Source of the DNA: an uncultured Acidobacteriota bacterium
GTDB taxonomy: Bacteria; Acidobacteriota; Blastocatellia; RBC074
Length of the DNA: 64,000 nt
Direction of reading: 5' to 3'
Assembly (NCBI GenBank): GCA_963796275.1
Contig: CAWCKY010000007.1
Location: 96,001-160,000 of the forward strand
Shown here: piece after piece, positions 11,952-60,833 of the stretch
How positions within the stretch are numbered: the first letter of the stretch is position 1
Layout: the number at the start of each line of letters is the position of its first letter
The notes under the pieces: generated by a model
What the model was told of the DNA's origin: nothing
Databases searched by the model: none
The model's input: only the letters and a program-made list of their open reading frames with translations
Translations under genes and position numbers: made by a program

Positions 11952-11962
11952 AATCGATCTCC

Positions 11963-12904: not shown

Positions 12905-12924
12905 TGGTTCTTCTCCTATAGAAA

Positions 12925-12993
12925 TTGGGGATGGAGCCCAGGGCTGGGGATATACTAAATCCTTGCTTCAGCCTCCCCGCCTCCATCCTCCAA
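12925..12993. repeat. Imperfect inverted repeat of a dispersed family, related to 26656-26790
   Basis: TTGGGGATGGAG...CTCCATCCTCCAA. Its reverse complement resembles GGGGATGGAGGCTGGGGCTGGACTAAGGATTTA at ~26659. Confidence 0.55.
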
Positions 12994-13025
12994 TTTCAAT
13001 TTCATTGTTTCAGTCCATCATCCGT

Positions 13026-13712: not shown

Positions 13713-14265
13713 GATAAAAACTCCTTCTTGGTATTTGTTCACCCAACCTCGGAAGCAGCAAACAGCCGGCCCTTCCGGGCGCGGATGAATGCGCTTCCTG
13801 CTGATGGTGGCTGAGGTATATGAATCTCCCTCAGCCTTATAATCCCAAAGAGGATGCTCTCCCCTCCGGTTGTACCGCCTGCTCCTTGGCGTACGCCAAA
13901 AGCATCGCGTGCTCACCCCAGCAGTAATTACAAATCTTCCGTAATGATTGTAATGACAGCAGAGCGGGCTGAGTACTGTCAGTTTTGACTGTATTTTGAA
14001 AAAAAAATTACAGAGAGTCGGGACGGCTGGCATCGCAGAAATCGCTATAACATTCTATATCGAAGTTACAACGAAGAAGGAGATTCTCGCTCGTTGACTG
14101 CGCTCGCACGCCCAGAGAGACAAAGAGACTCGAAGAGGAAGAGATGGAAAGTGAACTCATTCTTCGGCGGCTGGAGCAGAGCCATTGGAAACTCGATGGA
14201 ATAGGCGGTACGGCGAATAGCCTGTAAACTAAGCTATTGATGTTTTAGATGGCGATTCAAGTTCG

Positions 14266-42014: not shown

Positions 42015-44966
42015 TCAGGAATGGCCATCGGATTTCTGGATTCCGAGTTTAATCATGCGAGTCCGAAGCGTGCTCGGGTTAAGACCCAGAGAATCGGCTG
42101 CTCCGCCGGGCCCGCTGATTTTCCAATTTGTATGCTCGAGTCTTTGGATGATGATCTCGCGTTCCAGTTCTTCGAAACTCTTTATGTTCGCGAAATGGCT
42201 TCCGGTATTTAGTATTGCTTCGAGTTTATCTGCCAGTTGAAGCACGGGGCCCTGAGTATTGATCACCGCCCTTTCAATTACATTGGACAATTCCCGGACA
42301 TTTCCCGGCCATCCATAATTTTGTAGAGCTTTCATCGTCGCCGGTTCCACGCTCTTAATGCCACGGCCCATTTTTCTGCTGAATTGGTTGATAAAGAAGT
42401 TTACCAGAGTAGTGATATCTTCTTTTCGATTGCGGAGCGGAGGCACGGTTATGGGGAAGACGTTGAGCCGGTACCATAGGTCTTCGCGAAAGAGACTTTT
42501 TGTGACTTCCAGCTGCAAGTTACGGTTGCTGGCGGCAATGACTCTCACGTCGACTTTTATAGTTTTGGAACCGCCTACCCGCTCGAATTCACCATCCTGA
42601 AGTACGCGAAGAAGTTTGGGCTGCAGTTCCAGCGGTAACTCACCTATCTCGTCTAGAAAAAGCGTCCCGCCGTTGGCGAGTTCAAACCGCCCGACCTTTC
42701 GTGATTGAGCGCCGGTAAAAGCTCCTTTCTCGTGACCGAACAATTCGCTCTCGATCAGGTTGGCAGGCAACGTGGCACAATTGACTTTCACCAGAGGCCG
42801 GTCTTTGCGCGGGCTGGCCTGGTGAATCGCGCGGGCGATCAACTCTTTCCCGGTACCGGTTTCGCCCATAATCAGAACGGTCGTGTCGGCCGCGGAAACC
42901 TGTTCGACTTTATAGAGCACGTACTTGAGTGCGTCGCTGTTACCGATAATTTCCGTGAAGTTGTGGGTGAGCCTGATCTCTTCTTGTAGATAAACGTTTT
43001 CAGCCTGGAGTTGATTTTTCAGCTCGCTCAGCTCGGCGAGCGCCGTCTGCAACGCTTCCTCGGCGCGTTTGCGCTCGGTGACGTCGCGCGCCATCCCTCG
43101 TACGATAGGGTAGTCAACACCATCCAGGCGCAAAGTGTTGTTGTATTCCCAGATTCGCCTCTCCCCCTTGTTCGTCTCAACCATCATCAACCCGGACGCC
43201 ATCCCCTCTCGCGTTATCATCGCCAGATACTCATCAAACTGGTCGCGAAACTCAGGAGCCATCATATCTCGCATACTATTGTCACTGATGTAATAGTCCG
43301 GGGCGTAGCCCAGGGCCTGGATCATCGCCGGGTTGGCGGAAAGAATTCGCCCAGACAGATCGTGGGTGCAAATCAGGTCGAGGCTGTTCTCGACGATGTC
43401 GCGGTAGCGATCTTCGCTTATCCGCAGTGCAGCCGCGGCATGCTCACGAAGGGTGATGTCGCGCAGGATGACGGTATAGAGTTTCTGACCGCCCGCCTCG
43501 ACCTGCGAGATGGAGGCTTCGATGGGAAACTCGCTGCCGCCGGCGCGCTGCCCATGAATCGCGCCTAGTTTGCCCATGGCCCGTCGCGTGACGAACGTTT
43601 CCTTGAAAGCTCGGATGTGCTCGCGGTGAAGCTCGCGGAACCGTTCGGGCAGAAATCGCTCGATTGGCTGGCCCATAGCCTCCGCCTCGGAACAACCGAA
43701 CATCGCCTCGGCCGCGCTGTTGAATAAGACGACCCGCTGGTTTTCATCGATGGTGATAATCCCGTCCATCGCCGATTCGATGATACCAGCCAGGCGCGCG
43801 CGGTGCTCCATCACCTCCGCCTCCGCTCGCTTGCGGGCGATGGCGTTGGCGAAACTCTCTCCGACGACCTGCAGGCGCGCAACTAATTGCTTGGGCCAGA
43901 TGCGAAACGAATGAAACGTACAAAACACCAGCACGCCGATGCTCGATCCGCGGATTGAGAGCGGGATGGACAGGCTCGATTTGAGCCCTTTCTCTAGACA
44001 ATATTGCCGCTCTGCGTTCGCCTCAGCCGGCAAATCGTCGGGGATACGTGACAGAACCACGTTAAACTGGCTAAGGATCTGTCGCGTATACCATGGAAAT
44101 GCATTTCTATCGATGTTCTTGGGGAAGGGGTTTATCTCGGGAGCAAGAGTTGAGTATGTTATGTGATACAGCGTCTGATCGGGCGAGAATTCGGAAATCA
44201 AAATTTGATCGACCCCGAGAAACTCGCTGAGGCGAACAAGCCACTGATCGATCGCCTGGTCGACTTCATCAACCGGTAAATAGACGAAGGCGGCCGAAAG
44301 TTCCGCCAGCAGAGCCTCGAAGCGATGGCGCTCCTCCGCCGATTGCCTGGCCTTTCTCAGCCTATTCTGCAATCTCAACAAAACGTAGATGAGCAGAGTC
44401 TGGATAATGCACAGGGCGATGATGCCGACAATGTACAATTCATATTCATCCCAGACCGATAAATTCTTAAACAGGACGATGCTCCCGCGCGGTAGTCTCT
44501 TCTCGCTTATTCCCCAACGCCGCATTTGGCGCCATTCGAACATATCCAGATTCGTATCGGTATCGAGTATGGGGATTGCCGCTGGTCGCTCTCCGTTCAG
44601 AATCCGCAGTCCCATTTCGGTGGATTTGACGCCGATGGCCTTGAAGCTGAGCAGGTGACCGCCGATTATGCCTTTCCCGAGGAGGGAGTCAGCGGTGCCA
44701 TAGATTGGTTCGTTCGCAGCCTGGCCAAACAACCGCAGAGCCTCTGGAGTGTCATAGGGGTTTCTGATGCCATTTTGAAACATCGAAACATAATCATCTT
44801 CCGCCGCCCCTGGAGAAGATAGGAATATCAGCGCTGTGTGGATGATGATCAGACCAATTATCAGATGACGACATAGTCTGAGGTGAGACATTACTCTACC
44901 GTTGATCCCGGGCTGAGTCGCAGTAGAGTTGTGAAAATTTTGCCTTAATAAGGTCATGGCAAACAA
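42015..44966 (-). CDS. Membrane-anchored GAF-PAS-PAS sigma54-dependent activator (bEBP3)
   Basis: Partial periplasmic sensor plus TM helix, GAF, two PAS (one FixL-like), GAFTGA, Fis-HTH. Confidence 0.92.
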
Positions 44967-45720
44967 TGATCTCCGTCTCCTAAGTCACATCCGTACTTGA
45001 GACATAGGGTTGAAATCAGGTCTGCCACTTATCTATTTGTTCTTTCCGATAGCAATTCTAACACACACACATGGGAATGGAAGTTAAAGCGCTTGGTCAG
45101 AGGAGTTATAGCGATCAGAGCGACCCCCCTGCCTTGATGATAACCTGTAACTTTTTCCTAGTGAAACCTACATGTATTACCAGTATCCAGTTCATTCATG
45201 TATCCATAAAATTCGATCTTGGAAGATTGTCAAATCTGATCGTAATGGATTTGTCATGGCTGGCCGCGAATCACGGACAAGAAGATGTCACCAAATTTCT
45301 CGTCTCCGCCATGTAAGTAATGGGTATGACCATTACTATTCTGAAGGCACCGTATTAAAGCTACGGGGTGCTGTTCTCGGTGCTGCTGTTTTAGGGCAGC
45401 AGCACCGCTTTTTATCATCCTCCCTCGACTGGTATCACGGCATCAGCAGTTTTTCTCATCGGACCTATAAATTCTTGGAGTAGTCCGCAACTTTAGCCAT
45501 CGATAAGTCAGTCTTGCGGAGAGGGTCATGGAGGCGATGAGTTACGATCACCGGATAAGGAAACTGGTGTCTTTTCGGTCTATCTTGAGATTGCAATGAA
45601 GTTCCATGACATTTGAAAGGACGCAAACGGCAGGAAGAGGTTGTCTGTGTTGATGGCCCGGAGAAGAGATCAAAAGTCCGCCGACCAGAAAGCCGGTAGG
45701 CGGACGTTGGAGGGGTACTC

Positions 45721-47766
45721 ATGGCAGTTGTTCTTAGAATAAGCGATAAAATCGTGGGCAAATCTCTGAAGAAAGCCAAATTGGACAAGTCCCGCGGTTC
45801 GGTAGTGACTTCTGAAGCGTTCACAGCAGATCAAAGCAAATACAAAACGGCGGAGTTGAGTTTCGGCAGATTATTTGAATCGGCGCCGGACGCGATGGTT
45901 CTGGTTGATGCTGAGGGCCGAATCGTGCTCGTAAATTCCCAAACGGAGCAATTATTCGGCTATCGGCGTGAAGAGCTGATCGGCGAGTTAATCGAGTTGC
46001 TTATACCGGAACGTTTCCGTGATGGTCGATTTGGCCACCAATCCTGCTATTCATTGGATACGCACATCCGGCCCAGCGGCGTCGAACTAGTCCTTGAGCC
46101 ATACGGCTTGCGGAAAGATGGGGGCGAATTTCCGGTCGAAATCAGCCAGAGTCCCTTGGAAACGAAAGATGGGGTGCTTGTTTCGACCGCTATTCGCGAC
46201 GTCAGCGAACGCAAGCGCATACGAGAGCTGGGCTCGGAGCTCGGGTTTGAAAAATTATCGTCTCGATTATTGGGAACCTTCATCAATCTTCCCACGGCCC
46301 AAATGGATGGCGAGATTGCGAACGCTCTGGAGCAGATTGTCGGGGTGTTTGGCACGAACCGAGCCATTCTCTGTGAGATCGACTCCAGCATGAGTAACCC
46401 GATCGTCCCCCACCGGTGGGATTGGCCTGGAATTCCGCACTCCCGAGAGATAGCAAAAGACAGCCTGCCCTGGTTGTACGATCGTATCCTAAAGGGAGAG
46501 ATAACCGAGCTCTCGCGCCCGGAAGAATTGCCCAAAGAGGCCGTCGCCGAACTCGAGTTTATGAAGTCGGCTGGCCTCAGATCGGCTCTCGTTATTCCAT
46601 TACTGATTGACGGCAAACTGATCGGGTGCCTGGCCACATCCAGCTACCGCAAGCGCATCCCATGGGATACTGTGTTGATCTCGCGATTTCAACAGGTGGG
46701 GAACATTTTTGCGAATGCGCTGACGAGGAGGCGGAATGATGAGAAACTGCAGGCCGCCTTCTCACAGATTTCAGATTTAAAGGAGCGATTGGAGCGAGAG
46801 AATACCTATCTGCGGGAAGAGATCGAGTTCGAGCACAGCCATACGACCACCGTAATCGGGCAGAGCATCGCCATTCGCAGCGTATTGAAGAAAGCTGAGC
46901 AGGTCGCATCTACTGACTCGGTCGTGCTTCTTTCCGGCGAAACGGGCGCGGGCAAAGAGTTGATAGCCAGAACTATTCACGAGCTAAGCAAGCGGAAAGA
47001 CAAGGCGATGGTGAAAGTCAATTGCGCTGCTATGCCTGCGACTCTGATCGAAAGCGAGCTGTTCGGTCGCGAAAAAGGCGCCTACACGGGAGCGCTTTCA
47101 CGTGAGATCGGGCGCTTCGAACTTGCCAACGGCTCGACTATCTTCCTTGATGAAATCGGCGAGTTGCCAACCGAGTTGCAAGCCAAGTTTTTACGGGTCC
47201 TGCAAGATGGTGAATTCGAGCGCCTGGGAAGCTCCAAGACTATGCAAGTTGATGCGCGCGTGATCGCGGCAACCAACCGTGATCTGCAGGTCGCTATCAA
47301 GGATGGCAAATTCCGCGAAGACCTCTACTATCGATTGAGTGTTTTCCCCATCGATATTCCTCCCCTGCGGGAACGCCGCGAAGACCTGCTGGCCATTACC
47401 TGGCATCTCCTGAAGGATTTATGCAAACGGATGGGTAGAAATGTGGAGCGCATCGACCCCGCTACATTGAAAGCGTTTCTTGCGTATTCGTGGCCCGGAA
47501 ACGTCCGCGAACTACGTAACGTTATAGAGCGATATCTCATCCTAAATCCCGGACCAGTATTTCGGGCTGAGGTCCCCGGATCAGATGAATCCCCGCCGCT
47601 TGCCGGGCAAAATCTCGACGAAGTCGAGCGCCGTCATATACAGCAGGTGCTACAGAAAACTCGCTGGCGTATCCGCGGTAAGGGCGGTGCGGCGGAAACT
47701 CTCGGATTGAAGCCGACCACTCTGGAGGCGCGCATGAAGAAGCTGGGAATCACTCGTCCACAATAG
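45721..47766 (+). CDS. PAS-GAF sigma54-dependent activator (bEBP4)
   Basis: [52 protein letters not shown]. Confidence 0.93.
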
Positions 47767-47816: not shown

Positions 47817-47843
47817 TATTAGGCCGCCCACGAAATATTGGAG
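47817..47843 (+). promoter_or_regulatory. Conserved 27-bp motif, copy 1
   Basis: TATTAGGC-CGC-CCACGAAA-TATTGGAG. Confidence 0.65.
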
Positions 47844-48022
47844 GTCTTTCCGCCTTTGCCGAACCATCCGGACTTATTCTGTGCAGTCGCTGGCAAACAG
47901 TCCTTCCATCCTCAGAAGCCGAAACCTTCTAAATGGTGATGTTATTTCATCACCACTCATAAGCTCAACACACAGCGAAACGATCAGGCCATTGTTTGGT
48001 ATTCAGTTGCGGCTGCGATGTT

Positions 48023-48037
48023 CGGCATTCCCCTTGC
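48023..48037 (+). promoter_or_regulatory. Sigma54 promoter
   Basis: CGGCATT-CCCC-TTGC upstream of the ABM gene at 48130. Confidence 0.7.
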
Positions 48038-48129
48038 AGTCCTTAGCAGGTGGGATCGTTATTCTCACGCGTTTGCGCATTGGAGAATTGACCCTCGGGA
48101 AAATGCGAGCTTAAGGAAGAAGGAGCGAG

Positions 48130-48459
48130 ATGATTATAGAGTTGGTTGGTATCGTTGCTTCTCCGGAGAAACGTGAGGAGTTGGGTCGGGCATTATCATT
48201 TTTGTTGGGGCCAACTCAGGTGGAACCGGGTTGCCTTGGCTCCCTCCTTTATCGGGATTTGTCAGATGCGAATGTGATCTATTTCGAATCTCGCTGGGAT
48301 ACTCTGAACGATTTGACACGACACGTTCGCTCTGAGGGATACAAAAAATTACTACTATTGATGGAACTGGGAGCTGAGCCACCAACTATCGAGTTTTTAA
48401 CGGTTACCGAGGTCAGAGGATTGGAGTTCATCGAAGCCGTTCGGAGGAGGCGAACCTGA
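48130..48459 (+). CDS. ABM-like protein
   Basis: EPGCLGSLLY..FESRWDTLNDLTRHVRS. Confidence 0.85.
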   Translation: MIIELVGIVASPEKREELGRALSFLLGPTQVEPGCLGSLLYRDLSDANVIYFESRWDTLNDLTRHVRSEGYKKLLLLMELGAEPPTIEFLTVTEVRGLEFIEAVRRRRT

Positions 48460-48543
48460 GCCTGTCTGGCTCGCTGATGCAGGCTGAAACAGCAATCTGC
48501 GAACGCGAGGGGCAGCACTGCTAATCAACAGAAGGAGGCAATC

Positions 48544-49089
48544 ATGAAAATAGCACGAATCGTTTTAAGTTCCTGTTTGCTCTTGATTGTGACCAACAAT
48601 GTGTTGGCACAGAAGGTCAACGTGGACTGGGACAAGGCCACCAACTTCTCAGTTTATAAGACGTACACATGGGCCAAGGGCACTCCGGCTCAGAACCCGA
48701 TGATGGCCGATCGAATAGTCAGAGATGTTGATGCACAACTCGCGGCCAAGGGGTTACAAAAGGTTGAACCCTCCGCCAACCCGGATCTGGTTGTCATCTA
48801 TCATGCAGGAAGAGATACCGAGACCCGAATGAATACAATCGACACAGGTATGTATGGTCCTGGATGGGGTCGTTGGGGTTATGGGGGAATGGGGTCGTCG
48901 ACCACTTATGTCGATAATATTCAGGTCGGCCAATTGATCGTCGACATCGGCGATGTCAAGAATAAAAAGTACATCTGGCGTGGAACGGCGAGTGCAACTA
49001 TCCCTGACAAGCCTGAGAAAGGTGAAAAGACGATCAACAAGGCGGTGACGAAGATGTTTCAGAAGTTCCCGCCCCCGGTAAAGAAGTAA
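48544..49089 (+). CDS. DUF4136 exported protein
   Basis: AQKVNVDWDK..NFSVYKTY..GQLIVDI..IWRG..KFPP. Confidence 0.88.
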   Translation: MKIARIVLSSCLLLIVTNNVLAQKVNVDWDKATNFSVYKTYTWAKGTPAQNPMMADRIVRDVDAQLAAKGLQKVEPSANPDLVVIYHAGRDTETRMNTIDTGMYGPGWGRWGYGGMGSSTTYVDNIQVGQLIVDIGDVKNKKYIWRGTASATIPDKPEKGEKTINKAVTKMFQKFPPPVKK

Positions 49090-49199
49090 TTACGGTCGGG
49101 GTGCGAGATAACAATCATACATTCGACCGCTGGCAAGTGATTTACATCTCATATGTGCGAGTCGCAATGAAGAAGTGAACGGAAGCTTTTCGTCCATGA

Positions 49200-49226
49200 T
49201 ATTGGAGCGACCACGAATTATTGGAG
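49200..49226 (+). promoter_or_regulatory. Conserved 27-bp motif, copy 2 (between convergent genes)
   Basis: TATTGGAG-CGA-CCACGAAT-TATTGGAG. Confidence 0.7.
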
Positions 49227-49287
49227 CCCTGTTTTCCGAGTTGTAACAGCAAACTGTTCAACTGTTCTAAATGTATCGAGCCGGGAT

Positions 49288-50760
49288 TCATCTGATACTC
49301 TCGATCTTGGTACCGATCACTTCGCCGGAAACGATCAATTCTACGCGGCGATTTTTCTGTCTTCCATCAGCGGTACTGTTATCCGACACCGGCATCGAGA
49401 ACCCCTTACCGACGGCAGTCACTTGATCCGAGGCAATCCCTTGTGAAATCAGGTATTCGCGGACTGCATTGGCGCGCTGTTCGGAAAGTTTCTGATTGAA
49501 CTCTTCGCCCCCGACGTTATCAGTGTGACCTTCGGCCTCAAGTTTCAGGCCTGGATAGTTGAGGACGATGCCGGACAATCGGGCGAGTTTCTCGCGAGCC
49601 AGCGGCCGCAAGGTGTATTTGCCGGTATCGAAGAGGACATCGCCCATGTTAATGATCAATCCTCGATCACTATCTCTTGTTTCCAGAATAGCGTTGAACT
49701 GCTGCAACAACCGTGCGCGTAATTCCGCTTTTTCGCGCGCGGCCTGTGCCGCGTTCTGTTTTGCCAGATCCTCGGCTTGCTGGGCCTTTACTCGCGCCGC
49801 GTCAGATTCGGCGCGCCGTTGCGCCTCCTGGGCGGTCGTCACTTCAGCGCGCTCCCGCCTTTCCGCCTCGAAACGTCTACCTGCTTCGGCTTTCTCGGCC
49901 TCGGCTTTGGCGAGCGCTTCATTCTCGCGCTGCCGGGCGAGCGCCTCCTCTCTCTGCCTGTTCAACGACAACGTTCGGGCGTCTTCGGCAAACTGCACTG
50001 CCTGACGGGCATTCGTTGCGATCTCCTTCTTGCTCTGATTTCTCGCGACCGCATTTTCTGCTAACTCCAGACTTGATTTCGCGCGGTTGAAAATGTCCGG
50101 GGCGTACTTCTCCGCACCGAGCGATTGAGCGATATGAATCGCGTTGCGGGCTTCGTAGAGTTCCAACGGATATTTCTTGAGGTCCAAGGTCATGCCCAGC
50201 GGGTTTGCCAGCTTGCGGTACTGGTCCCACTCAAGCAAATCGAATTGAGCGTCGAGCAGAAAAAGTTTTCCTTTGACCTTGTCTCGCGGCTCGTTTATCA
50301 GCACTACTTTAGTGCTGGGACGGCGGACTGCGAAATAGGGTTCCGCGGTGACCGCCAGCGCGAAGACCTGGAGTTGTGTAGTCACATCCAGCTTGCTCTC
50401 ACCCTTATCAAGCAGCAATTCGCCGAGATTCTCTACCCGGCCTTCGGTAGAAACCGACCAGAGGACATAGGTCAAATATTCGGCCCCGAACTTGGTGGCC
50501 AGCGGCAAATCGCGAAACTTGGCATTAACTCGTACGAAACCTTGTTTGCTCTCTACCTTGGCCTCGCCCCCGGCGCCCGGTAACAGATCTGTCGGTTTGA
50601 AATCGATGGTTGTCGATCCACCGAGGACCTTATAGTTCACGGCTTTGATTGGTCTTGAAACAAGCTCTTCCCTGATTGTAGGTGACGTGGTTTGTCCCGT
50701 GGCGCGCGGACCCAAGGAAATCAATCCCAATATCAAAAAAACAATTTTTATTCCAGACAT
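49288..50760 (-). CDS. OmpA-family protein with DUF4398-like helical region
   Basis: GDVLFDTGK, EGHTDNVG, LSEQRA, GRQKNRRVE. Start moved to ATG 50760 (signal peptide). Confidence 0.9.
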   Translation of the reverse strand: MSGIKIVFLILGLISLGPRATGQTTSPTIREELVSRPIKAVNYKVLGGSTTIDFKPTDLLPGAGGEAKVESKQGFVRVNAKFRDLPLATKFGAEYLTYVLWSVSTEGRVENLGELLLDKGESKLDVTTQLQVFALAVTAEPYFAVRRPSTKVVLINEPRDKVKGKLFLLDAQFDLLEWDQYRKLANPLGMTLDLKKYPLELYEARNAIHIAQSLGAEKYAPDIFNRAKSSLELAENAVARNQSKKEIATNARQAVQFAEDARTLSLNRQREEALARQRENEALAKAEAEKAEAGRRFEAERRERAEVTTAQEAQRRAESDAARVKAQQAEDLAKQNAAQAAREKAELRARLLQQFNAILETRDSDRGLIINMGDVLFDTGKYTLRPLAREKLARLSGIVLNYPGLKLEAEGHTDNVGGEEFNQKLSEQRANAVREYLISQGIASDQVTAVGKGFSMPVSDNSTADGRQKNRRVELIVSGEVIGTKIESIR

Positions 50761-50840
50761 AATCTTCCCCTTTACCGGCATGAGACTCTTCAACGGGCCC
50801 TGAGGAACCCAATTGCTCAAATATCCCTCGGCCATTCGCG

Positions 50841-51016
50841 TCACTTCACCAGCGGAATATCGACTGCGAGTTCGTACCGCAGCAGAGCGCGGATTTTGTT
50901 TTCAATCTGCAGGTAGCGCGCCGCCTTCCTGCCGGGCAGCACACCGGAAACGAGCAGCAGCAATGACATTACAAAGATCGAAACAGCAAAACTCTTTTCA
51001 GCATAGACTGATTCAT
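50841..51016 (-). pseudogene. Remnant of an exported helical protein gene
   Basis: GAGGAG RBS and ATG; a frameshifted signal peptide (FAVSIFVMSLLLLVSG) is joined directly to VLPGRKAARYLQIENKIRALLRYELAVDIPLVK-stop. Confidence 0.55.
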
Positions 51017-51109
51017 TGTAAATCTCCTCATGAGTTGATTGCCGGATAGATCATCGCCGCAGATGCGGCATTGCCACAGGCGTTGCAGTGCAGGCTATTT
51101 CAGCGAAGG

Positions 51110-52091
51110 CTACTTCTCATCGACGGGACTCCACGTTTTGTCCGGGTTGAAGCGCTCAATTTTCCTCGCGATCTCCAGGGTGTTCGGACCGAGATCCTTT
51201 TGATAGACCACGCCGTCGTGGCTCACCATGAAAGTTTTCACGCCAGTGATGCGGTACTGAGCGGGGGCTGCGATGAGCGCGAAGCCGCCGATCATGGCAC
51301 CCTCTACCACGAAATCCAGCTTGCCTAGGGGGGCTGCTGGGCCTTGTCCTTTCAAGATCTTGAAGTAATAACCGTGGTAAGGCTCGTATTTGCTGCTGTA
51401 GCCATGCTCGATCGCGAGGGCGATCGGTTCTCCCACCGGGCCGCCCCATGAACCGTCGGGGTTCTGCCAGGCCAAACCATCTCGCTTTCCGGGTGTGCTG
51501 ACGATGCGTTGCGCGTACTGATTCACGCTGGAACCGTCGTGCTTCTGAAGGGCATATTCGTGCTGCGCCTCCACGAAGCCGCGGCAAATTTCAATGGCAT
51601 CCAATTCATTCCTTCCGATTCGACGGTATAAAAGCTCTCGACGCCCGGCTTTCGCATCGAATGACCACTTTCCGCCGGATTTCACCAGCGGCACGGGAGC
51701 CGGCCAATCGCCTTTGCCGAGGTTAAGAATCGCACGATTCTTGTTCCTGGGATCGATTGATACTCTCATTCGAACACGGGCCTCTGCGGCAAACTCCATA
51801 GCCTTCTCTTTGTCATAAGCCGGTTCACCAGTTTCAATCAGATCTTGTCCGTCGGGCCCGAAAATCGCATCGAGCTCAGCGACATCGAATTTTTCAGCCG
51901 CTTCGACCAAAGCTTCCGCCGCTTGTTGTGGCGTGTCGAAAGTTCTTGGTTTCGAGCGCGAGGTCGCAGGTGCCTTGCCGGCCTCATGCAGACACAGCAG
52001 GCGGGGCGGGCGACATCAACATCGCGATGACTAGTCCGCAAGCCAGCCTGAAGAGGACTGAACAACGCAGGGTCATTGATTGTAAGCTCAT
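51110..52091 (-). pseudogene. DUF2950 protein with a frameshift after the signal peptide (~51990)
   Basis: Body RTFDTPQQAAEALV..RRIGRNELDAI..PYHGYYFKIL..GVKTFMVSHDGVVYQKDLG. The signal-peptide frame from ATG 52091 ends AVSA-TGA in a different frame. Confidence 0.8.
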
Positions 52092-52115
52092 GTTTTTCCT
52101 CACTGACATGACTGA

Positions 52116-53477
52116 TTACCTCCGGCGACCACCGCCTCCTCTCGATCCACCGCCGCCTCCCCGAGATGCTCCCATGCTCGAAGCGCCGCGCGAACTGCTT
52201 GCATGGGACGCACTCCCGCTGTAGCCTCCGGAACCGCCACCGAAGGCGCTCCGATTCGCACCACCTGAGCTGCTTGGAATATTGCGGTTTCCAACGTGAT
52301 CACCGCCGCCACCGCTGGCGCGGTCGCTCACCCCGGCGCCACTCGCGCGGCTGCCGCTCCCGCCGGCGCGATCGCTCACCCCGGTGCCACTCGCACGGCT
52401 GCCACCACTGCTGGAGCGATCGCTCACCCCGGCGCCCGCACCTCTAGTGCCTGCGCCGCTGCCGAGGTTACCGCCTTGCCGGTCGATTTGCTGACGCGCA
52501 CCCGACTGACGACTGGACAATGAATCTCCACGCGCCGTGCCACCGAATCGGTCGGCTGTCGCCTGGTTCGCGTAAGGAGTTCCACCGCGATGCTGCGGAT
52601 TGTGCTGCCATGTGTTCCCGGTATTGCTGACGCGGTTGCCACCGCTGATGTTGGCGCGGTTGCCGCCATTTATATTGGCGCTGCGATTGAAATTGTTGTT
52701 CACATTGATGTCGATGTCGTTGTGTCCCCAGCCGGCACCCCAGCCCCAACCGCCGCCCCACGCAGCGCCCATTGCAACACCAACTCCGAAGGAGATTGCG
52801 CTCGTGGCAATCACTGCTCCCGTCGGGTAGGGCGGGTAGTAGATCGGGGGATACGGATAAACCGGCGGACCGTAAACAACCGTGGGGTTATAAGTTGGGA
52901 CATAAACCACCTCCGGATTCGCCTGCTGTACCACGATGACTGTTTTGCTCTCCACCACCTTGGTCTCGACTTTCTGTTGATCGCTCGACTTCAAAGCCCC
53001 GGTGTCCTTGGCTTTTTTGCGCATGCGTTGCACGGCATCCATGACGTCGCTCTGCTGCGCGAGAAAAGCGTTCCCGAGATCAGTTGTCCATTGAATGTCA
53101 TCAGCGAGTCGTTTAACCACGTCCGGCAGCGCTGCCATCGCCTGAATGCTGGGGTCCCATGATCGTTTCGAGACTGCATCCACCAGCGCCTTGTCCTTGA
53201 GATTCGGATTTTTCGTCAGCCACTGCTGAAGCTGGATGATTTCGAGAGGATAGGTTGAGGCGACCAGCACCTGGCTTAAGAGTTGATCCGGGTAGAGAGC
53301 AATCGGCGCAACCAGCGCATCAAGCTGATCGGCCGGGATATTGGGAGCGTCTGATGATGCCGCAGGTTGCTGTGGCTCTTGTACCATCCCGCCAAAGACC
53401 CCCTGCGTCATGAGCAACGCACATAGACTTAGGATGATATACAGACTCCCTTGCTTCCGCTGGGTTGCCACCTTCAT
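52116..53477 (-). CDS. DUF3300 protein
   Basis: LDALVAPIALYPDQLLSQVLVASTYPLE, WDPSI, VYVPTYNP; Gly/Ser/Arg tail with a 15-aa repeat x3. Confidence 0.92.
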   Translation of the reverse strand: MKVATQRKQGSLYIILSLCALLMTQGVFGGMVQEPQQPAASSDAPNIPADQLDALVAPIALYPDQLLSQVLVASTYPLEIIQLQQWLTKNPNLKDKALVDAVSKRSWDPSIQAMAALPDVVKRLADDIQWTTDLGNAFLAQQSDVMDAVQRMRKKAKDTGALKSSDQQKVETKVVESKTVIVVQQANPEVVYVPTYNPTVVYGPPVYPYPPIYYPPYPTGAVIATSAISFGVGVAMGAAWGGGWGWGAGWGHNDIDINVNNNFNRSANINGGNRANISGGNRVSNTGNTWQHNPQHRGGTPYANQATADRFGGTARGDSLSSRQSGARQQIDRQGGNLGSGAGTRGAGAGVSDRSSSGGSRASGTGVSDRAGGSGSRASGAGVSDRASGGGGDHVGNRNIPSSSGGANRSAFGGGSGGYSGSASHASSSRGASSMGASRGGGGGSRGGGGRRR

Positions 53478-53527
53478 ATCGACATATCTCCTTTCTTGTG
53501 GTGTCCGAACTTATGCTCTATAAGATG

Positions 53528-53542
53528 GCAATCTTTGCGCCA
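53528..53542 (-). promoter_or_regulatory. Sigma54 promoter
   Basis: TGGCGCA-AAGA-TTGC, 51 nt upstream of the DUF3300 start. Confidence 0.82.
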
Positions 53543-53645
53543 AAAAAACGCTGGCCGCTAAATCTTCCGGATTTTGTGGAAGTGATTTAGATTGCTAGTC
53601 TTGCCAGGCTGATTCAGATTTGGGCAGAATATCCGCTCCCCAGTA

Positions 53646-53672
53646 TATTGGAGCGCCCACGAATTGTTGGAG
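53646..53672 (+). promoter_or_regulatory. Conserved 27-bp motif, copy 3
   Basis: TATTGGAG-CGC-CCACGAAT-TGTTGGAG, ~105-130 bp upstream of the 53528 promoter. Confidence 0.72.
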
Positions 53673-53820
53673 GTCAGTTAATTCACACAGACCTGGCAGC
53701 ACGAGCGACGCCTGCGAAAACCCGCTGGATCTCTCCCTGCATTTCCCCCATATATTTATTGCCATCAATTATTGTGGAGGCGGGTGATGAACAGCCTTGT
53801 CCCAAACTTCATCGCTTAAT

Positions 53821-56454
53821 TCAGCGCCCGCGACCCCCGCCACGGAAGCCGCCACCACCACTACGAGAACCGCTCCCGCCCCGATAACTTCCTCCGCTAC
53901 GATGGCTGCCTGAACTATAACTCCCCACATTTCGATTACTGCTGCCGCTGGTACGGTAGTCGCCGAAGTCGTTTGTGCGCTTGGCCCCGCTCGAACGGGC
54001 TGACCTGTCGGATTCGAGCTGGCCATAGGTAGATTGATCTAGCTGTCTGCCCTGGCTTCCGAATTGGCCTCCCGACGTTGCTGAACCTCCGGCGCGGTCG
54101 CGAGATTGGGCGCTTCGTTGCTGCTGTGTGCGAGTCGCGTCTTTCCGAAACATCGGATCGTTCTCCGGGACCCCAGCTCGCTGAGCGGGCGATGCATCTT
54201 TCCGGAGCATCGGATCGTTGGCCGAAATTCCAGTCTGTCTCTGTTGCTGTCCCGGTGCCGCGTCCTGGCGCTGCGGCTTGTCGACCGGCTTCCATCCGCC
54301 GTTTTCAAACTTCTGCCAATTACCGCCATCGCTGCGTTTGTAGACGCTCCCATCCTGCCCCGCGTAGATATTGTTTCCGCTCGACCCGACGGAGCCGCCG
54401 CCTTCCGGCCCGCGCCGGCTGACCATTCCGCCTTCACCGGTCCGCGTCACGCGCGTCGTCTCTCCCGTCTGCCTGTTGGTGTACCGCTTGGTGTGGGCCC
54501 AGTCGTCTCCGCGCTGGACATTGGTCGACCCCCAATTGCCGTAGACGTTCGACCCCTGACGCGTCTGAGCGTAAGCGCCGGTGCGCGGGTTGTATGCTTG
54601 CGCATATCCGCGGGATCCGTAAGGCCCGTAAGCTGCTGCGCCTCGCGCATACGTCCCTGTGCTCGGATTATACCTGGCTCCATAATTTACTCCGCCGTAT
54701 GGGCCATAAATCCCACCCGCCGCGCCATAGGCGCCGTTATACGGGTTATACCAGGCGCCAGCGCCGTAGGTATGATGATAAGGGTAATAGATCGGATAAT
54801 AGCCTCCGTACCAGGCGTAAGGCGGGTAGTACCAGCCTGTCCCCCAGACGGTACATCCCCAGGCGATCATCATCCCGCTGTAGCCCGCCATGGCCGCCAC
54901 TGCCACCCATTCGCTGTCGCTCTCATCTTCCTTCACCGTTACATAGGTCACATTATGCGCCGGAGAACTGGGCGGAATTTCGTATATCGTACCCGGCACC
55001 GATCCCGTCACCTCCCACGGCCCTGTTGGACTTTTCGCCATAAACCAGACACCCTGGAAGCACATGTAATAGATGTCGCCGACCTTGATGATGTCCTTGT
55101 CGGTGTTGATCGCCCGCTCGACAGACGTCTTCTCGATGGCCTGGAACTGGGGATCGCCTTGATAGACGACTTCTGGCGCATTTACCTGTTTTTTATTGAC
55201 GCGGGCAGTTTGCGGTATTTGCGCAAGTAAGACGGCCTCGGCTGCCTGCCGTGTCCCCGGCACGGATGCGAGTACGCGCGAGCGCGGGTGCTCGAGCGAA
55301 ATCTTCTTGAAGTCCTCTGGGAGGTTAGTTGTGGCGAAGGTCCACGGACCTGTGAAATCGGGCGCCGTGAACCACCGGCCCGTCACAAGATAATAGACCG
55401 GGCCGCCTACCCATAAGCGAAAAAGATCGCTTTCAGTGTTGCTCACCCAAAGTAATTGCGTGCCAGGTACTAAAACGTACTTCGGATCACCCTTGAGCAA
55501 AATCATTTCGGAGGGCTCGAAGCTGACGAAGACCATCGGCGCTTTGTCCGCAAGTTTTTTGGCGGGCAGATTGGACTTTACGTCTTTAAAATTCTCGTCA
55601 GCGGGAAGTTTGTTGAAGCTCTGGGGTAGGTTGTCTGCCGACTCCCATGGGCCTTTCACGTTGGTCGCTTTGAGCCATTTGTCTTTGTTGCGCAGGTAGT
55701 AGCTGTTGGTCGGGCCATACTGAAAAACATCCCAGTTGGTGTTGATGGCGAACTTGAGATCGTTTTCCTTGATAGGGCTCCAGATAGGCTCGCCGTCGAA
55801 ATTGACCAATATCGCCGGCTTCTTACTGAAAAAGATAGTGGGCGGGTCCGATTTGATTCCCTCTACCTGCTTGGGAATGATCAGGCTCGTGTCTATATTG
55901 GCGAGAACGCGGTCGAGCGCAATGACCCGATCCTCTTTGGGGATCGCCTTGATGATTTCCGCGACGACCTCGTTGGCCTGCTCCTTCGAGAGCGTCGAGA
56001 AGTTCGATTCGGTGATCTTCAGCGACGCGAAGTTCACGAGCCGTTCATCAATGGATGCTTTTGTGTCCGCTTCAAGTTTGACGGTCCCGAGCGCGGGCTT
56101 GCTGGCGCCTTTCGATAGGTATGAGACGGCTGCGTAGGCTGTCATGTGTTGCTGGTTTTCCCAACTGGAGACCTGCGGCGCATAGAGAAGTATGTTGCCG
56201 CCGCTCGGAGTCTTGTAGGCGCGCGGCCAGCCCCCATCGACGGTCTGCGCCGCTGTCGCTACCCGGGCGGGAGACGTTGGTTGCGGCACGGCTTTTCTCG
56301 CCGGCGGCAACGGCGTCTGTGCCGGTACCGGCGCGCTGGATGAAGTAAACAGGATCAAGAGCATGGCGCTCGCAATGCAGCTCCACGTTTTATCATGACG
56401 TAATCGCATGTATTTATCAGAAAGCCTCATAGGTTTTGGCGTAGCGCCAGCCAT
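53821..56454 (-). CDS. Large exported uncharacterised protein; paralogue of 9447-11951
   Basis: YAPQVSSW, LLWVSNTESD, LVTGRWF, ASVPGTRQAAEAV, IPPSSP..VTYV; YNPxTG repeats; Gly/Arg tail. Start position uncertain. Confidence 0.8.
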   Translation of the reverse strand: MAGATPKPMRLSDKYMRLRHDKTWSCIASAMLLILFTSSSAPVPAQTPLPPARKAVPQPTSPARVATAAQTVDGGWPRAYKTPSGGNILLYAPQVSSWENQQHMTAYAAVSYLSKGASKPALGTVKLEADTKASIDERLVNFASLKITESNFSTLSKEQANEVVAEIIKAIPKEDRVIALDRVLANIDTSLIIPKQVEGIKSDPPTIFFSKKPAILVNFDGEPIWSPIKENDLKFAINTNWDVFQYGPTNSYYLRNKDKWLKATNVKGPWESADNLPQSFNKLPADENFKDVKSNLPAKKLADKAPMVFVSFEPSEMILLKGDPKYVLVPGTQLLWVSNTESDLFRLWVGGPVYYLVTGRWFTAPDFTGPWTFATTNLPEDFKKISLEHPRSRVLASVPGTRQAAEAVLLAQIPQTARVNKKQVNAPEVVYQGDPQFQAIEKTSVERAINTDKDIIKVGDIYYMCFQGVWFMAKSPTGPWEVTGSVPGTIYEIPPSSPAHNVTYVTVKEDESDSEWVAVAAMAGYSGMMIAWGCTVWGTGWYYPPYAWYGGYYPIYYPYHHTYGAGAWYNPYNGAYGAAGGIYGPYGGVNYGARYNPSTGTYARGAAAYGPYGSRGYAQAYNPRTGAYAQTRQGSNVYGNWGSTNVQRGDDWAHTKRYTNRQTGETTRVTRTGEGGMVSRRGPEGGGSVGSSGNNIYAGQDGSVYKRSDGGNWQKFENGGWKPVDKPQRQDAAPGQQQRQTGISANDPMLRKDASPAQRAGVPENDPMFRKDATRTQQQRSAQSRDRAGGSATSGGQFGSQGRQLDQSTYGQLESDRSARSSGAKRTNDFGDYRTSGSSNRNVGSYSSGSHRSGGSYRGGSGSRSGGGGFRGGGRGR

Positions 56455-56528
56455 CGGAGTTCCACTAATCCCGGCACAATCTACATCCGGGTAAACTGTT
56501 TATCTTTGAAACTCCAAAATCGTATGTA

Positions 56529-56543
56529 GCAAGCTTGGGTCCA
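56529..56543 (-). promoter_or_regulatory. Sigma54 promoter
   Basis: TGGACCC-AAGC-TTGC upstream of 56454. Confidence 0.65.
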
Positions 56544-56794
56544 GACAAATAACTCTACCGGGGCATTTACAATGCTTTTTAGCAGAATACGTAGTTTGAT
56601 GGCACGTTCGAGTGCAATAGCTTGCGATACCGCTGACGAATCAGAAACGCGAGCAGCATCACGCATCTCAAAATATGTAGGTGATATTCGAGCAGATGAT
56701 TTAACCCTTCAGGACTGTGTGTTCAGCGGAATATAGAAATCCTTCAATATTGGAGCCTTTATAGGTGTGTTTCTTAGAGCTCAGGAGCGAAAGC

Positions 56795-56821
56795 CTCCAA
56801 TAATTCGTGGAGCCTCCAATA
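56795..56821 (-). promoter_or_regulatory. Conserved 27-bp motif, copy 4
   Basis: Reverse complement reads TATTGGAG-GCT-CCACGAAT-TATTGGAG; an extra TATTGGAG half-site lies at ~56748. Confidence 0.72.
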
Positions 56822-57231
56822 TTATGGGGTGTGAAAGTGTGAGGTTGCTGTCATAGACACATTAAACCTTGAATGATGCGCCTACTCCAACACACCAAGA
56901 TCACCCTCAGCTTTCAAAGACAATTTTCGTAACAATTGCCCGCATTGTGTTGTGTGTCGTACTATCGATTCGGAAGAGGCATCTCCATCCGTCGTGGTAT
57001 TCTCATAGAACTTGTATGTTAACCAAGAAGCGAGAGGTGCCAGAAGACCAGAAGCCCGGACATCTGTTGCAACTCTCGGAGCGATGAGTCCGGCCGAATT
57101 CCCCCTGAATTTTCGCGGAGTCTCTTGTGACCAACCTGAATGTAGATGCTGGGAATCTTCGACAGAGGACAGCCGTTCATCAACAGTTTCGGTGTATTTT
57201 TGTTAGTTATTGCTATATGGAGTTTGGCTAA

Positions 57232-59337
57232 ATGAGAAAACTTCCCATTATTTTTATTTGTGCATTCTGTTTGATCTTCGTTCCCGTTCGTTTCGCTGAC
57301 GACGGGATGTGGACGTTTGACAACCCTCCGCTCAAGCAGTGGAAGGAGAAGTACGGGTTCGAACCGTCGCGCGAATGGCTGGATCACGTGCGGCTCTCCA
57401 CCGTGCGTTTGAGCGAGGGCGCGGGCGGCGGGACCGGATCCTTCATTTCGGCTGACGGCCTGGTCTTCACCAACCAGCACGTCGGGGCGGGGCAGGTCGC
57501 GAAGCTTTCGGCGAGCGGGCGTGATTTCGTCAAGGAAGGTTTTTACGCCTCAACGCGCCAGGAAGAATTGAAATGCCTCGACCTCGAAGTCAATGTGCTG
57601 GTCTCTTACGAGGATGTGACTAAGCGAGTACAGGGCGCGGTCAAATCCGAAGCCTCGGACAAAGAAGCCGCCGCGCAGCGCAAGGCCGAGATGGCTGCGA
57701 TAGAAAAAGAAGAATCGGCGAAGTCAGGCCCTGATGCCTTGATGCGGTGCGAAGTCGTGACGCTTTACAACGGCGGCGAATATTGGCTTTACCGCTTCAA
57801 GCGATATACCGATGTGCGGCTGGTCTTTTCGCCCGAGGAGCAGATCGCATATTTCGGCGGCGATTATGACAACTTCACTTTTCCGCGTCACGACCTGGAC
57901 ATCACTTTCTTCCGCGTTTACGAAGAGGGGCGGCCCGCTAAGATCGAGCATTATTTGAAATGGGCGTCGCCTGCTTCAGGAGAATCGGTCGGCGAGGGTG
58001 AGCTGGTTATCGTGCCGGGATTTCCCGGATCGACCGCGCGGTTGTTGACCGTCGCGCAACTGCGTTATCAACGCGATGTCGGGAATCCGCTGCAAATGCA
58101 GGTGTGGACTTCGCGCAGCGCCGCATTGAAGAATTACGCCAAGCGCGGCCCCGAGCAACAACGACAGGCATCGCAGTCGATCCGCGGTCTGGAGAATTCG
58201 ATCAAGCGGCTGGTCGGCCAACAGGCGGGCCTGGAAAATCCGCGCATCTTCAAAAAGAAAGAAGACGAAGAGACCGCGCTGCGGAAAGCCATCTCGTCTA
58301 AAATCGAATGGCAGCGCGCTTACGGCGACGCATGGACGCGGATCGAGAAGGCTTATGCGTCTCTGCCCGCTATGTCGAATCGGATCGCTTTCTCTAATCT
58401 CACGGCCTCACGGCTCGGCGCGACCGCGTCATCTTTCGTGCGCTATGCCGAAGAGATCGGCAAGCCGAACGAACAACGCCACGAGGAGTTCCGCGACAAT
58501 CGAATCGCGGCGCTGAAGCGCAACCTGCTCTCACCCGCGCCGATCTACCCTGAAATGGAGGTGGCGTTACTGGCGGCCTGGCTGGAAGAGGGGCAAAAGG
58601 CTCTTGGCCGTGACGACCCATTCGTTCGAGCGGCGCTCGCCGGTTCGACTCCGGCCGAACTAGCGAAGCGAGTCATCGGCGGAACGAAGCTACACGATGT
58701 CGCGTTCCGCCAAGCGTTGTTTGAAGGCGGCGCTGAAGCGATCAGCAAATCCGACGATTCGCTTATTGACCTCGCGCGCAGAATCGAGCCGATCGTGCGC
58801 GAGTTGCGCACCTGGAATGAAGAGAATATCCAGAACATCGAAACCGGCGCAGGTGAGAAAATCGCCAACGCGCGGTTCGCTGTCTACGGCAAAACGGTCT
58901 ATCCGGACGCCAACTTCAATTTGAGGATCGAATACGGAACAGTCGCGGGCTACGAAGAAGACACGACACTCGTTCCATTTAAGACGACGTTCTACGGGTT
59001 GTTCGATCGCGCAGCCAGCTTCAATGAGAAGCCGCCTTACCATTTGCCGCCGCGTTGGAAAGAAGCTAAATCCAGGTTGGACTTAGCGACGCCGCTCAAC
59101 TTCGTCTATTCAGCGGATACCATCGGCGGCAACTCCGGCAGCCCCATCATCAATCGCAAAGCCGAGATCGTCGGTATAAATTTCGACAGCAATATTCAGA
59201 AATTGCCGAATCGGTATCTCTACATCGACGAAAGCGAGGGCGCGCGGGCTGTGGGCGTACACACGGCTGCAGTCATCGAAGCGCTGCAGAAGTTGTACGG
59301 CGCGGGAAAGCTGGTGGAGGAAATCAAAGGGAAGTGA
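57232..59337 (+). CDS. Peptidase family S46 (dipeptidyl peptidase DPP7/DPP11-like)
   Basis: [35 protein letters not shown]. Confidence 0.93.
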
Positions 59338-59444
59338 CGAAATCGCACTGATCGATGCGGAGCCCCGCGGCGGCGACCCCAGGACGGTATTCCGTGATTT
59401 ACACCCATTCCGGGCGAGGAGCCCGTGAAAGAGAAGGGAATTGG

Positions 59445-60833
59445 ATGAAAACGAACACATTCTCAGTCTCTATCTATTCGGCGATATTCAAACTGAGCGT
59501 CTGCGGCTTTGTTCTTCTCGCGGCGATTCCAATCGGTGCGCAAAGACAAGCCGTTCAAGACAATTGGCCGTCGTTTCGCGGCAATCACGCGGCTGGCGTG
59601 GCTGACGGGCAAAATCTTCCCGAGGTCTGGGACGGCGAGAAGGGAACAGCTATCAGATGGAAATCCGCTATTCCCGGATTGGCGCATTCGAGCCCGATTG
59701 TCTGGAGCGACAAAATATTCGTCACAACGGCGATCAGCAGTCGCGGTACGGCCAACTTCAAACCGGGCCTTTACGGGGACGGCGACGCGTCAGATGATCG
59801 TTCTACTCACCGATGGAAGGTTATCTGCCTACGCAAAAAGACGGGCCAGGTAGTTTGGGAACGGACGGCTTACCAAGGTTCCCCGGTCGACAAACGTCAC
59901 ATCAAATCTACCTACGCCAGCTCCACGCCCGCGACCGACGGGCGTTACGTCGTCGCACTCTTCGGCTCGCAGGGGCTTTACGCCTTCGATATGAATGGCC
60001 GCCCCGCGTGGAAGAAAGATTTGGGGCGGATGGATATGGGAGCCTACGACGTGCCCGATTATGAGTGGGGGCCGGCCAGTTCGCCCATCATCTACAAAAA
60101 TATGGTCATCGTTCAGGTCGATCAGCAGAAGGCATCGTTCCTGATCGCCATCAACATCGAGAACGGCACCACCGCATGGAAAAGCGAGCGCGACGAGTTG
60201 CCTTCGTGGGGCACGCCCACGATCTATCCGGGCAAAAATCGGGTTGAGCTGGTTACCAACGGATCGAAATTCATTCGCGCCTACGACCCGGAGACCGGCA
60301 AAGAGCTATGGCGTTTAGGCGGGAGCTCGAAGATCACCGCGCCCACGCCGGTCTTCACCAATGACCTGATCGTCGTCGCCAGCGGGCGCCGCCCTGAAAT
60401 GCCAATCTTCGCCATTCGCGCGGGAGCGAGCGGCGATATCACGTTGAAAGCGGGCGAGAGCTCGAATGAGGGCGTTATCTGGTCGAAGCAGCAGGTCGGG
60501 CCGTATATGCCCACGCCGCTCATCTACCGCGGGTTGCTTTACACGCTTCGCAATCAGGGCATCATCTCCTGTTACGATCTGGCAACCGGGGAAGAGAAAT
60601 ATACCGAAAGGGTTCCTCATCAGGGCAGCGGGTTCAGCGCATCGCCTGTGGCATCGGACGGCAAAATCTATCTGGCGAGCGAAGACGGCGACATCTTCGT
60701 GGTCAGGGCAGGCGCGAAATTCGAACTGCTCAACAAAAATGGCGTTGGCCAGTTGCTGATGGCGACGCCCGCGATTTCAGAAGGCATGATGTTTCTTCGC
60801 GCCGAGCGCGACCTGTTCGCGATCGGTCGTTGA
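59445..60833 (+). CDS. PQQ-like beta-propeller repeat protein
   Basis: [32 protein letters not shown]. Start moved to ATG 59445. Confidence 0.88.

Follow-up and report, generated by a model that had tools for sequence, protein, structure and literature searches.

A rare 27-bp element before sigma-54-type promoters: a candidate enhancer regulon in an uncultured Acidobacteriota bacterium

The stretch of DNA analysed here (64,000 nucleotides, called the window throughout; positions 96,001 to 160,000 of contig CAWCKY010000007.1 in the assembly GCA_963796275.1 of an uncultured soil Acidobacteriota bacterium) carries four copies of a 27-bp element, TATTGGAG-N3-CCACGAAW-TRTTGGAG, three of them exact matches to this pattern. 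Judged from sequence, it seems likely, and in our view the best overall explanation, that the element is the upstream activating sequence (UAS) of a small sigma-54 regulon under a PAS-GAF-AAA+-HTH (helix-turn-helix) activator encoded at 45721-47766 and called bEBP4 (bacterial enhancer-binding protein 4). The proposal starts from what is observed: the motif is present, it is rare, it is linked to sigma-54-type promoters, it is conserved before orthologous genes, and it occurs together with the activator.

A pattern search located each of the four copies exactly where a preliminary description of this DNA had placed them (47817, 49200, 53646 and, on the minus strand, 56795; Table 1), and none of 100 dinucleotide-preserving shuffles of the window matched the 27-bp pattern. 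All four lie between the listed open reading frames (ORFs), as first described, and the fixed 19-bp period claimed for the half-sites is likewise present, the TTGGAG boxes being spaced 19 bp in 4/4 copies. Copy 1 begins 50 bp past the activator stop codon, and an additional, inverted TATTGGAG box lies near copy 4, at 56748-56755 (+). The element consists of two 16-bp units, CTCCAAyAATTCGTGG and CTCCAATATnnTGGGG, 19 bp apart centre to centre, the left halves of which (CTCCAAyA) are near invariant while the units diverge in their 3' halves. The embedded CCA-N8-TGGAG dyad reported earlier is present but weak, with the best 16-bp registers giving 4.6-4.75 complementary pairs of 8 (mean for 16 copies taken from four genomes). 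What dominates the element is therefore its direct repeat, in which CTCCAAyA, with a GTGG or GGGG tail, recurs at a period of 19 bp.

Across the source genome (9.46 Mb in 7 contigs, 54% G+C), a search allowing up to three mismatches returned eight copies: besides the four of the window, contig C6 has four, all within 78.6-101.4 kb. The same eight came out at E <= 3.3e-6 in a search with a 16-copy profile, whose next match (E = 1.1), at C6:84454-84481, is one more copy, lengthened by a 1-bp insertion. This brings the total to nine genomic copies at two loci, four in the window and five in a 23-kb stretch of C6. The preliminary description had foreseen that the motif might turn out to occur in many copies unlinked to sigma-54 promoters, as a repetitive extragenic palindrome (REP) or miniature inverted-repeat transposable element (MITE) would; genome-wide, eight of only nine copies are linked to such a promoter. 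Nine copies at two loci in 9.46 Mb are not what a REP or MITE would leave, and we therefore rejected a dispersed repeat of this kind. A reading as a REP/MITE-like repeat or structured RNA without a protein-binding enhancer role could draw on the first unit, which can form a short hairpin in some copies (the C6:101355 copy has an 8-bp stem), but we give it next to no weight, for the nine copies share no common fold (folding z-scores of -1.69 to +0.57), occur in both orientations relative to the flanking genes and mostly lie upstream of, not inside, predicted transcripts. Nor was there an Rfam match at E <= 1, save a spurious eukaryotic long non-coding RNA (E = 0.28) elsewhere in the stretch.

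Promoters were scored against TGGCACG-N4-TTGCW, with the GG and GC obligatory and a maximum of 12. In eight of nine cases the copy is accompanied, 81-251 bp away, by a GG-N10-GC site that faces outward to a gene start and scores at least 9 of 12 (Table 1), and TTGC stands at -12 in all eight of these linked promoters. The three -24/-12 matches originally described in the window (48023, 53528 and 56529, at ~100-280 bp) are present, at distances of 179, 103 and 251 bp. By comparison, 9.1% of random non-ORF positions have such a promoter site at 60-300 bp, and with TTGC required the figure is 3.0% of random genome positions, such TTGC sites having a genome-wide density of 0.066 per kb per strand. 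Six copies are inverted with respect to their promoter, at 81-110 bp, and two share its orientation, at 179 and 251 bp. The genome contains a single rpoN (PF04552 match at C3:1419712, E = 4.5e-58) and ~45 sigma-54 activators (PF00158). Given a motif this rare, with eight of nine copies upstream of a correctly oriented sigma-54-type promoter, we consider it very probable that the element is a sigma-54 enhancer, as was originally proposed.

Six of the copies are closely similar over a cassette of ~130 bp made up of an inverted UAS, a CTCGCAAG box, a AAATCACTTCC box and the promoter. Read towards the promoter, the layout is CTCCAAyAATTCGTGG, 3 bp, CTCCAATATnnTGGGG, ~35 bp, CTCGCAAG, ~8 bp, TAAATCACTTCC, ~30 bp and TTGGc..aaGCTTGC. 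The UAS, CTCGCAAG, AAATCACTTCC and promoter align over 14 cassettes from four genomes, and the atpB, HlyD and GH94 cassettes are 68-73% identical between UAS and promoter, compared with 57 +/- 3% for shuffled controls. Sigma-54 promoters commonly carry a site for integration host factor (IHF) between UAS and promoter, at about -40 to -80. The AAATCACTTCC box lies ~30-35 bp upstream of -24 in most cassettes, and the TAAATCACTTCC box may be a candidate site for an architectural, IHF-like protein; compared by eye with the IHF consensus, WATCAANNNNTTR, the AAATCACTTCC box fits partially, best in the HlyD copy and poorly elsewhere.

These extra conserved boxes between motif and promoter, together with a 19-bp direct-repeat layout that is unusual for this activator class, could be taken to mean that the element is the operator of a non-AAA+ factor (a repressor, co-activator or nucleoid protein) and that the true enhancer is another box, for example CTCGCAAG. 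We find this very unlikely, since within every cassette conservation is highest in the motif, which stands at variable distance and in both orientations as an enhancer would, is retained in the ABM and 877-aa copies (179 and 251 bp), where the inner boxes are absent, and strictly co-occurs with the DNA-binding domain of one activator. Moreover, there is no other DNA-binding gene at the related loci among the Pfam-scanned ORFs (64 of 83 listed). Three further candidate functions were tried and rejected. A small-RNA promoter, composed of the TGCGAGTCG box and 'ATTTAC' with the motif inside the small RNA, does not agree with the position of these boxes between the inverted motif and the sigma-54 promoter, with the lack of an Rfam family or with folding no better than that of shuffles; a CsrA-type double GGA site and a recombinase (dif-like) site were set aside because most copies lie upstream of transcripts, both orientations are found and the element is not an inverted repeat.

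The preliminary description had assigned a set of envelope genes to the regulon (ABM-DUF4136, DUF3300-DUF2950-OmpA and the 877-aa gene), and these stand as predicted targets. The scope proves wider, as the five C6 copies precede carbohydrate and energy operons, operon membership past the first gene being assumed throughout from spacing and strand. On C6, five groups of genes are predicted targets. GH94 is the first gene before one of the glucoamylase family, and isoamylase before one for an MscS-type channel; a complete F-type ATPase operon at C6:85494-92525 (L001 15494 to L002 2525) has Pfam subunits a, b, delta, alpha, beta and epsilon; an RND efflux operon (HlyD-type, AcrB, OEP) continues into PPK2 and a SpoIIE-type phosphatase; and behind a gene for a small secreted protein come those for acetate kinase, a radical-SAM enzyme, glycogen phosphorylase, transaldolase and phosphoketolase. 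Copies of the ATPase subunits are also encoded elsewhere in the genome, with 69% identity for beta and 56% for alpha, which makes this a second F-type ATPase. This gene content suggests the mobilisation of glucan, stored or external, towards acetyl-phosphate and ATP with the help of an extra ATPase, which would amount to an energy- or oxygen-limitation programme. Two of the C6 genes, GH94 (L001 10182-11054 / 11039-14041) and the AcrB-type gene (L002 4440-6134 / 6049-7617), are each read as two overlapping ORFs covering one Pfam profile, owing either to a genuine frameshift or to faulty assembly.

Two observations concern neighbours of these genes in the window. A sigma-54-like match, CGGCGCGCTACCTGCA, with a score of 9 and CTGC rather than TTGC, lies at 50908-50923 (-), 64 bp upstream of the OmpA-family start codon and without a UAS of its own; the OmpA gene of the relative G023 has its own full cassette. 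Genes for a peptidase S46 and a BamB/PQQ-like beta-propeller protein (57232-60833, +) diverge from the control region of the 877-aa gene, and no sigma-54 match scoring at least 8 and facing them was reported in 56420-57260.

The motif was found in three of 40 relatives, in four of 87 family genomes (this genome counted) and in the same four of 401 genomes sampled from the class, with G004 among those that gave no match. The two other genomes of the genus, G001 (87% complete) and G002 (73% complete), showed no motif and no activator orthologue, while both are present in two other genera; this patchy distribution may be due to loss, transfer or incomplete assemblies. A scan of bacteria and archaea at one genome per species gave 11 loci, seven of them in three uncultured Acidobacteriota records of metagenome-assembled genomes. 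The remaining four are single matches in unrelated taxa. From the information content of the pattern, ~2 chance hits are expected in the 596 Gb scanned.

In the relatives G008, G010 and G023, six of eight fetched copies have an inverted-orientation promoter, at 92-104 bp. The cassette precedes DUF3300-DUF2950 in G010 and DUF4136 followed by DUF3300-DUF2950 in G008, and thus turns up upstream of the DUF3300/DUF2950 orthologues, where the preliminary description had proposed to look for the motif. It also precedes glycogen phosphorylase in G008, and in G023 both DcaP-like porin fragments and OmpA. The ABM genes of all three retain the same-orientation UAS with a promoter of the type yGGyATyCnCCTTGCw, represented by CGGTATCCGCCTTGCA in G010 and TGGCATCCGCCTTGCT in G008, and with 11-nt spacing in G023. 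In the G008 ABM UAS (L029 ~10470-10515, minus strand), the two units are set apart by an extra 11 bp, roughly one helical turn, and the second box reads ATGGAG; despite the insertion this UAS lies ~80 bp upstream of the score-10 promoter TGGCATCCGCCTTGCT. On this evidence the predicted core regulon (ABM, DUF4136, DUF3300-DUF2950 and OmpA or porin) is conserved across three genera.

We next consider the protein that would bind the element. The AAA+ domain of bEBP4 matches PF00158 at 1e-69, with GETGAGKE and IFLDEI as Walker A and B motifs, and its C-terminal HTH_8 (PF02954) covers residues 632-675. Its GAYTGA loop, common to its orthologues, is the sole case among 42 AAA+ domains examined in the genome, the others having GAFTGA or GSFTGA. 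In other activators the GAYTGA variant is reported to work (PMC6615313, PMC3105312). Among the 40 relatives, full-length searches gave matches above paralogue level in G010 (66%, residues 20-575), G008 (77%, 348-680) and G023 (77%, 481-681), other best matches there and paralogues in its own genome reaching no more than 57% identity. Across the 86 other family genomes, the PAS-plus-GAF sensor is matched whole in these three only, and elsewhere the PAS domain alone matches, at E >= 7e-33. The last 58 residues are 83-85% identical in the three and at most 62% identical anywhere else. All orthologues have the same recognition helix, which is found in no other of the 44 activator C-termini of the genome; the preliminary description had noted that the HTH of bEBP4 differs from the other three.

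The genes lie close to the sites. In each relative the orthologue is 0.4-15 kb from motif copies, and the order activator stop, UAS, promoter, ABM is shared by the window, G010, G023 and the metagenome contig L057. This contig, one of 80 fetched loci (826 kb), is the only one with a full-length bEBP4 orthologue (71% identity); its UAS lies 31 bp past the orthologue stop codon and is followed by a promoter, CGGCATTCACTTTGCA, and by an ABM gene whose product begins MIIELVGIVA, as in the window. No strong UAS match was found in the other 79 loci, which have more distant activators. The assignment of the element to bEBP4 in the preliminary description gains from the restriction of orthologues to motif-bearing genomes (4/87), their nearness to motif copies, the identical helix and the gene order in L057, and from these sequence comparisons we think that the 45721-47766 protein is probably the binder of the motif. 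In the 755-bp gap between this gene and the divergent activator gene beside it, there is a strong terminator-like hairpin (45367-45407, +) with a 13-bp stem and a T-rich tail; the 103-aa ORF that encloses it (45172-45483) belongs to no Pfam or NCBIfam family.

Several findings count against the proposal. The first concerns this neighbouring activator, bEBP3 (Table 1), which, like its relatives at their own loci, could bind the UAS, either alone or in a mixed ring with bEBP4. A bEBP3-like gene adjoins the bEBP4 orthologue in G010, G008 and G023, and its helix, read across frameshifts, is close to that of bEBP3, so co-occurrence does not cleanly separate the two activators. The two UAS units also differ in their 3' halves, and bEBP4 shares GAYTGA with HrpS, which always carries this variant and depends on HrpR (PMC3105312); GAYTGA variants are also reported to be compatible with activation on their own (PMC6615313). 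At the loci in the three relatives we found no specific match to the bEBP3 sensor region (aa 1-660), nor one to its DNA-binding domain at E <= 1e-13, although frameshifts blunt both tests. Further, the NPSTLR-type helix of bEBP3 is common to several activators of the genome, and a 63%-identical DNA-binding domain of this type occurs in the motif-less G001; a bEBP3-type helix therefore does not track the motif. In L057 it is an OmpA-like gene, not a second activator, that lies directly upstream of the bEBP4 orthologue. We accordingly regard a role for bEBP3 in binding the element as unlikely.

The remaining points of this kind concern the sites and the statistics. The nominal binomial probabilities of finding 8/9 copies linked, 4e-8 and 6e-12 for the two backgrounds given above, overstate independence, because the copies are paralogous, as are the cassettes, and the relatives share a common descent. 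The promoter score is unspecific, with 15 sites scoring at least 9 between 40 and 60 kb of the window, most of them intragenic. A 19-bp unit spacing with weak dyads is unlike the textbook two-fold sites of the NtrC type, and the relatives' assemblies are rich in frameshifts, which weakens negative protein searches there. Two cassettes of relatives point into the 3' end of a gene, one in G023 (4969) with a good promoter and one in G010 (L033) with GA for GG. The former (L031 4969-5103) has the promoter TGGCTCCAAGCTTGCC 93 bp from its UAS, facing the 3' end of the activator orthologue, and would give an antisense transcript of it; ABM, on the opposite side, is served by this UAS as well.

Copy 2 of the window belongs among these points as well, since no promoter match scoring at least 8 was found on either strand of 49050-49330. 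It is situated between the convergent DUF4136 and OmpA genes, and the preliminary description had left it unexplained by the enhancer model. At the expected -24/-12 position (~49107) there is neither GG nor GC, and the sequence runs into the DUF4136 stop codon. The inner boxes are present, and the stretch after the UAS is most like the G010 DUF3300 cassette, at 74% identity compared with 57 +/- 3% for shuffles. Copy 2 thus looks like a relic cassette, whose placement between convergent genes would follow from the loss of its promoter. Tentatively, one might go further and see in the cassette a copy-and-paste module. Its duplication would have brought unrelated operons (a second ATPase, an RND pump, glycan hydrolases and a route from glycogen through phosphoketolase to acetate kinase) under the control of an envelope regulon that originally comprised ABM, DUF4136 and DUF3300-DUF2950, and so have yielded a lineage-specific survival programme for energy or oxygen limitation governed by a single PAS-GAF sensor. 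On this view the 49200 copy would be a decayed module insertion, and a bolder addition would place the GAYTGA activator in a mixed ring with its neighbouring paralogue.

Table 1. Features of the proposed regulon. Coordinates are window positions unless preceded by C6; distances are between motif and promoter unless stated otherwise.
Feature	Coordinates	Strand	Remarks
Activator bEBP3	42015-44966	-	GAF-PAS-PAS-AAA+-HTH (Pfam); adjoins bEBP4 gene
Activator bEBP4	45721-47766	+	PAS-GAF sensor, sigma-54 AAA+ domain, C-terminal HTH_8 (Pfam)
UAS copy 1	47817-47843	+	3 mismatches; first box degenerate, TATTAGGC; same orientation as its promoter, -24 lies 179 bp downstream
Promoter CGGCATTCCCCTTGCA	48023-48038	+	serves ABM; 179 bp; 91 bp before ABM start codon
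ABM-domain protein	48130-48459	+	Pfam; first gene of target operon
DUF4136 protein	48544-49089	+	Pfam; operon with ABM (48130..49089)
Copy 2 cassette	49134-49226		minus-strand inner boxes CGACTCGCA (49156-49164) and GTAAATCACTTG (49134-45), in usual order, towards lower coordinates
UAS copy 2	49200-49226	+	exact match
OmpA-family protein	49288-50844	-	Pfam; same operon as DUF3300-DUF2950
DUF2950	51110-51910	-	Pfam; same operon as DUF3300
DUF3300	52116-53477	-	Pfam; first gene of target operon 49288..53477
Promoter TGGCGCAAAGATTGCC	53542-53527	-	serves DUF3300; 103 bp; 49 bp before start codon
Inner box TAAATCACTTCC	53578-53589	-	between UAS copy 3 and DUF3300 promoter
UAS copy 3	53646-53672	+	exact match; inverted with respect to its promoter, 103 bp upstream of -24
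877-aa protein	53821-56454	-	no Pfam or NCBIfam family; hydrophobic N-terminal segment, Gly/Tyr/Ser/Arg-rich tail
Promoter TGGACCCAAGCTTGCT	56543-56528	-	serves 877-aa gene; 251 bp; 73 bp before listed start codon
UAS copy 4	56795-56821	-	exact match; oriented like its promoter, -24 lies 251 bp downstream
Promoter	C6 78526	-	serves isoamylase; 93 bp
Promoter	C6 84343	-	serves GH94; 110 bp
Promoter	C6 85398	+	serves ATP synthase subunit a; 94 bp
Promoter	C6 92892	+	serves HlyD-type subunit; 81 bp
Promoter	C6 101474	+	serves small secreted protein, then acetate kinase; 92 bp

In the mechanism we propose, each 16-bp unit would be bound by one dimer of bEBP4, and a signal received by the sensor domains would lead the bound activator to form its AAA+ ring. 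Looping of the DNA would bring the ring, across 81-251 bp, to the sigma-54 holoenzyme on the GG-N10-GC promoter, possibly with the assistance of protein at the AAATCACTTCC and CTCGCAAG boxes, and ATP hydrolysis would open the promoter. This would switch on ABM-DUF4136, DUF3300-DUF2950-OmpA and the 877-aa gene in the window and, on C6, GH94-glucoamylase, isoamylase-MscS, the second F-type ATPase, RND efflux and the acetate kinase-phosphoketolase cluster. We infer the binding, the looping, the signal and the physiological role, and the arrangement of the copies suggests that the UAS can work either way round. As a mechanism this is conventional; what is new is the site sequence and the regulon, within a narrow acidobacterial clade. 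No description of either was found in openly accessible full-text literature on DUF3300/DUF2950 or on sigma-54 regulons of Acidobacteria.

PMC4653623 describes DUF3300 and DUF2950 as a universally co-localised, secreted and uncharacterised pair, and E. coli yacH is listed as a DUF3300 protein in PMC9600279. The proposed regulon places this widespread pair beside ABM, DUF4136 and OmpA-type envelope proteins, and its link in this genome with glycogen/glycan catabolism, acetate kinase-phosphoketolase and a second ATPase provides a concrete hypothesis on when DUF3300-DUF2950 is used. The use that Acidobacteriota make of dozens of sigma-54 activators is almost uncharted, and here one such activator gains a candidate DNA site, promoter set and regulon.

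NtrC at glnAp2, the NifA UAS and FhlA at hyc and fdhF are established modules of enhancer and -24/-12 promoter operated by NtrC-family sigma-54 activators. The system described here resembles them in its tandem sites ~80-250 bp upstream of GG-N10-GC, apparently usable in either orientation, and in having an element between UAS and promoter, and bEBP4 likewise combines a sensor, an AAA+ domain and a C-terminal Fis-type HTH. It differs in its new site sequence, in 19-bp direct repeats with weak dyads and in its gene set. The best-scoring named family for bEBP4 is FhlA (NCBIfam NF011958), residues 293-679 aligning with profile positions 304-688, although the score, 393 bits where the cut-off is 830, does not make it an equivalog. 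As in FhlA, the HTH is of the style 'GxGGAAxxLGLxxxTLxxRMxKLGI' and the N-terminal sensor includes a GAF domain; unlike FhlA, the sensor is PAS plus GAF, and there are no hydrogenase or formate genes among the annotated targets. The pair bEBP3/bEBP4 resembles HrpR/HrpS of Pseudomonas syringae (PMC3105312), adjacent paralogous activators of which one has GAYTGA; HrpR/HrpS have no sensor domains and act at a single promoter, whereas bEBP3 and bEBP4 have large sensors. Finally, the reuse of near-identical promoters before unrelated genes (mobile promoters) has been described for prokaryotes in a general way (PMC3575422), and the near-identical cassettes before unrelated operons of one genome are comparable, with the difference that the unit here is a complete enhancer and sigma-54 promoter at fixed spacing.

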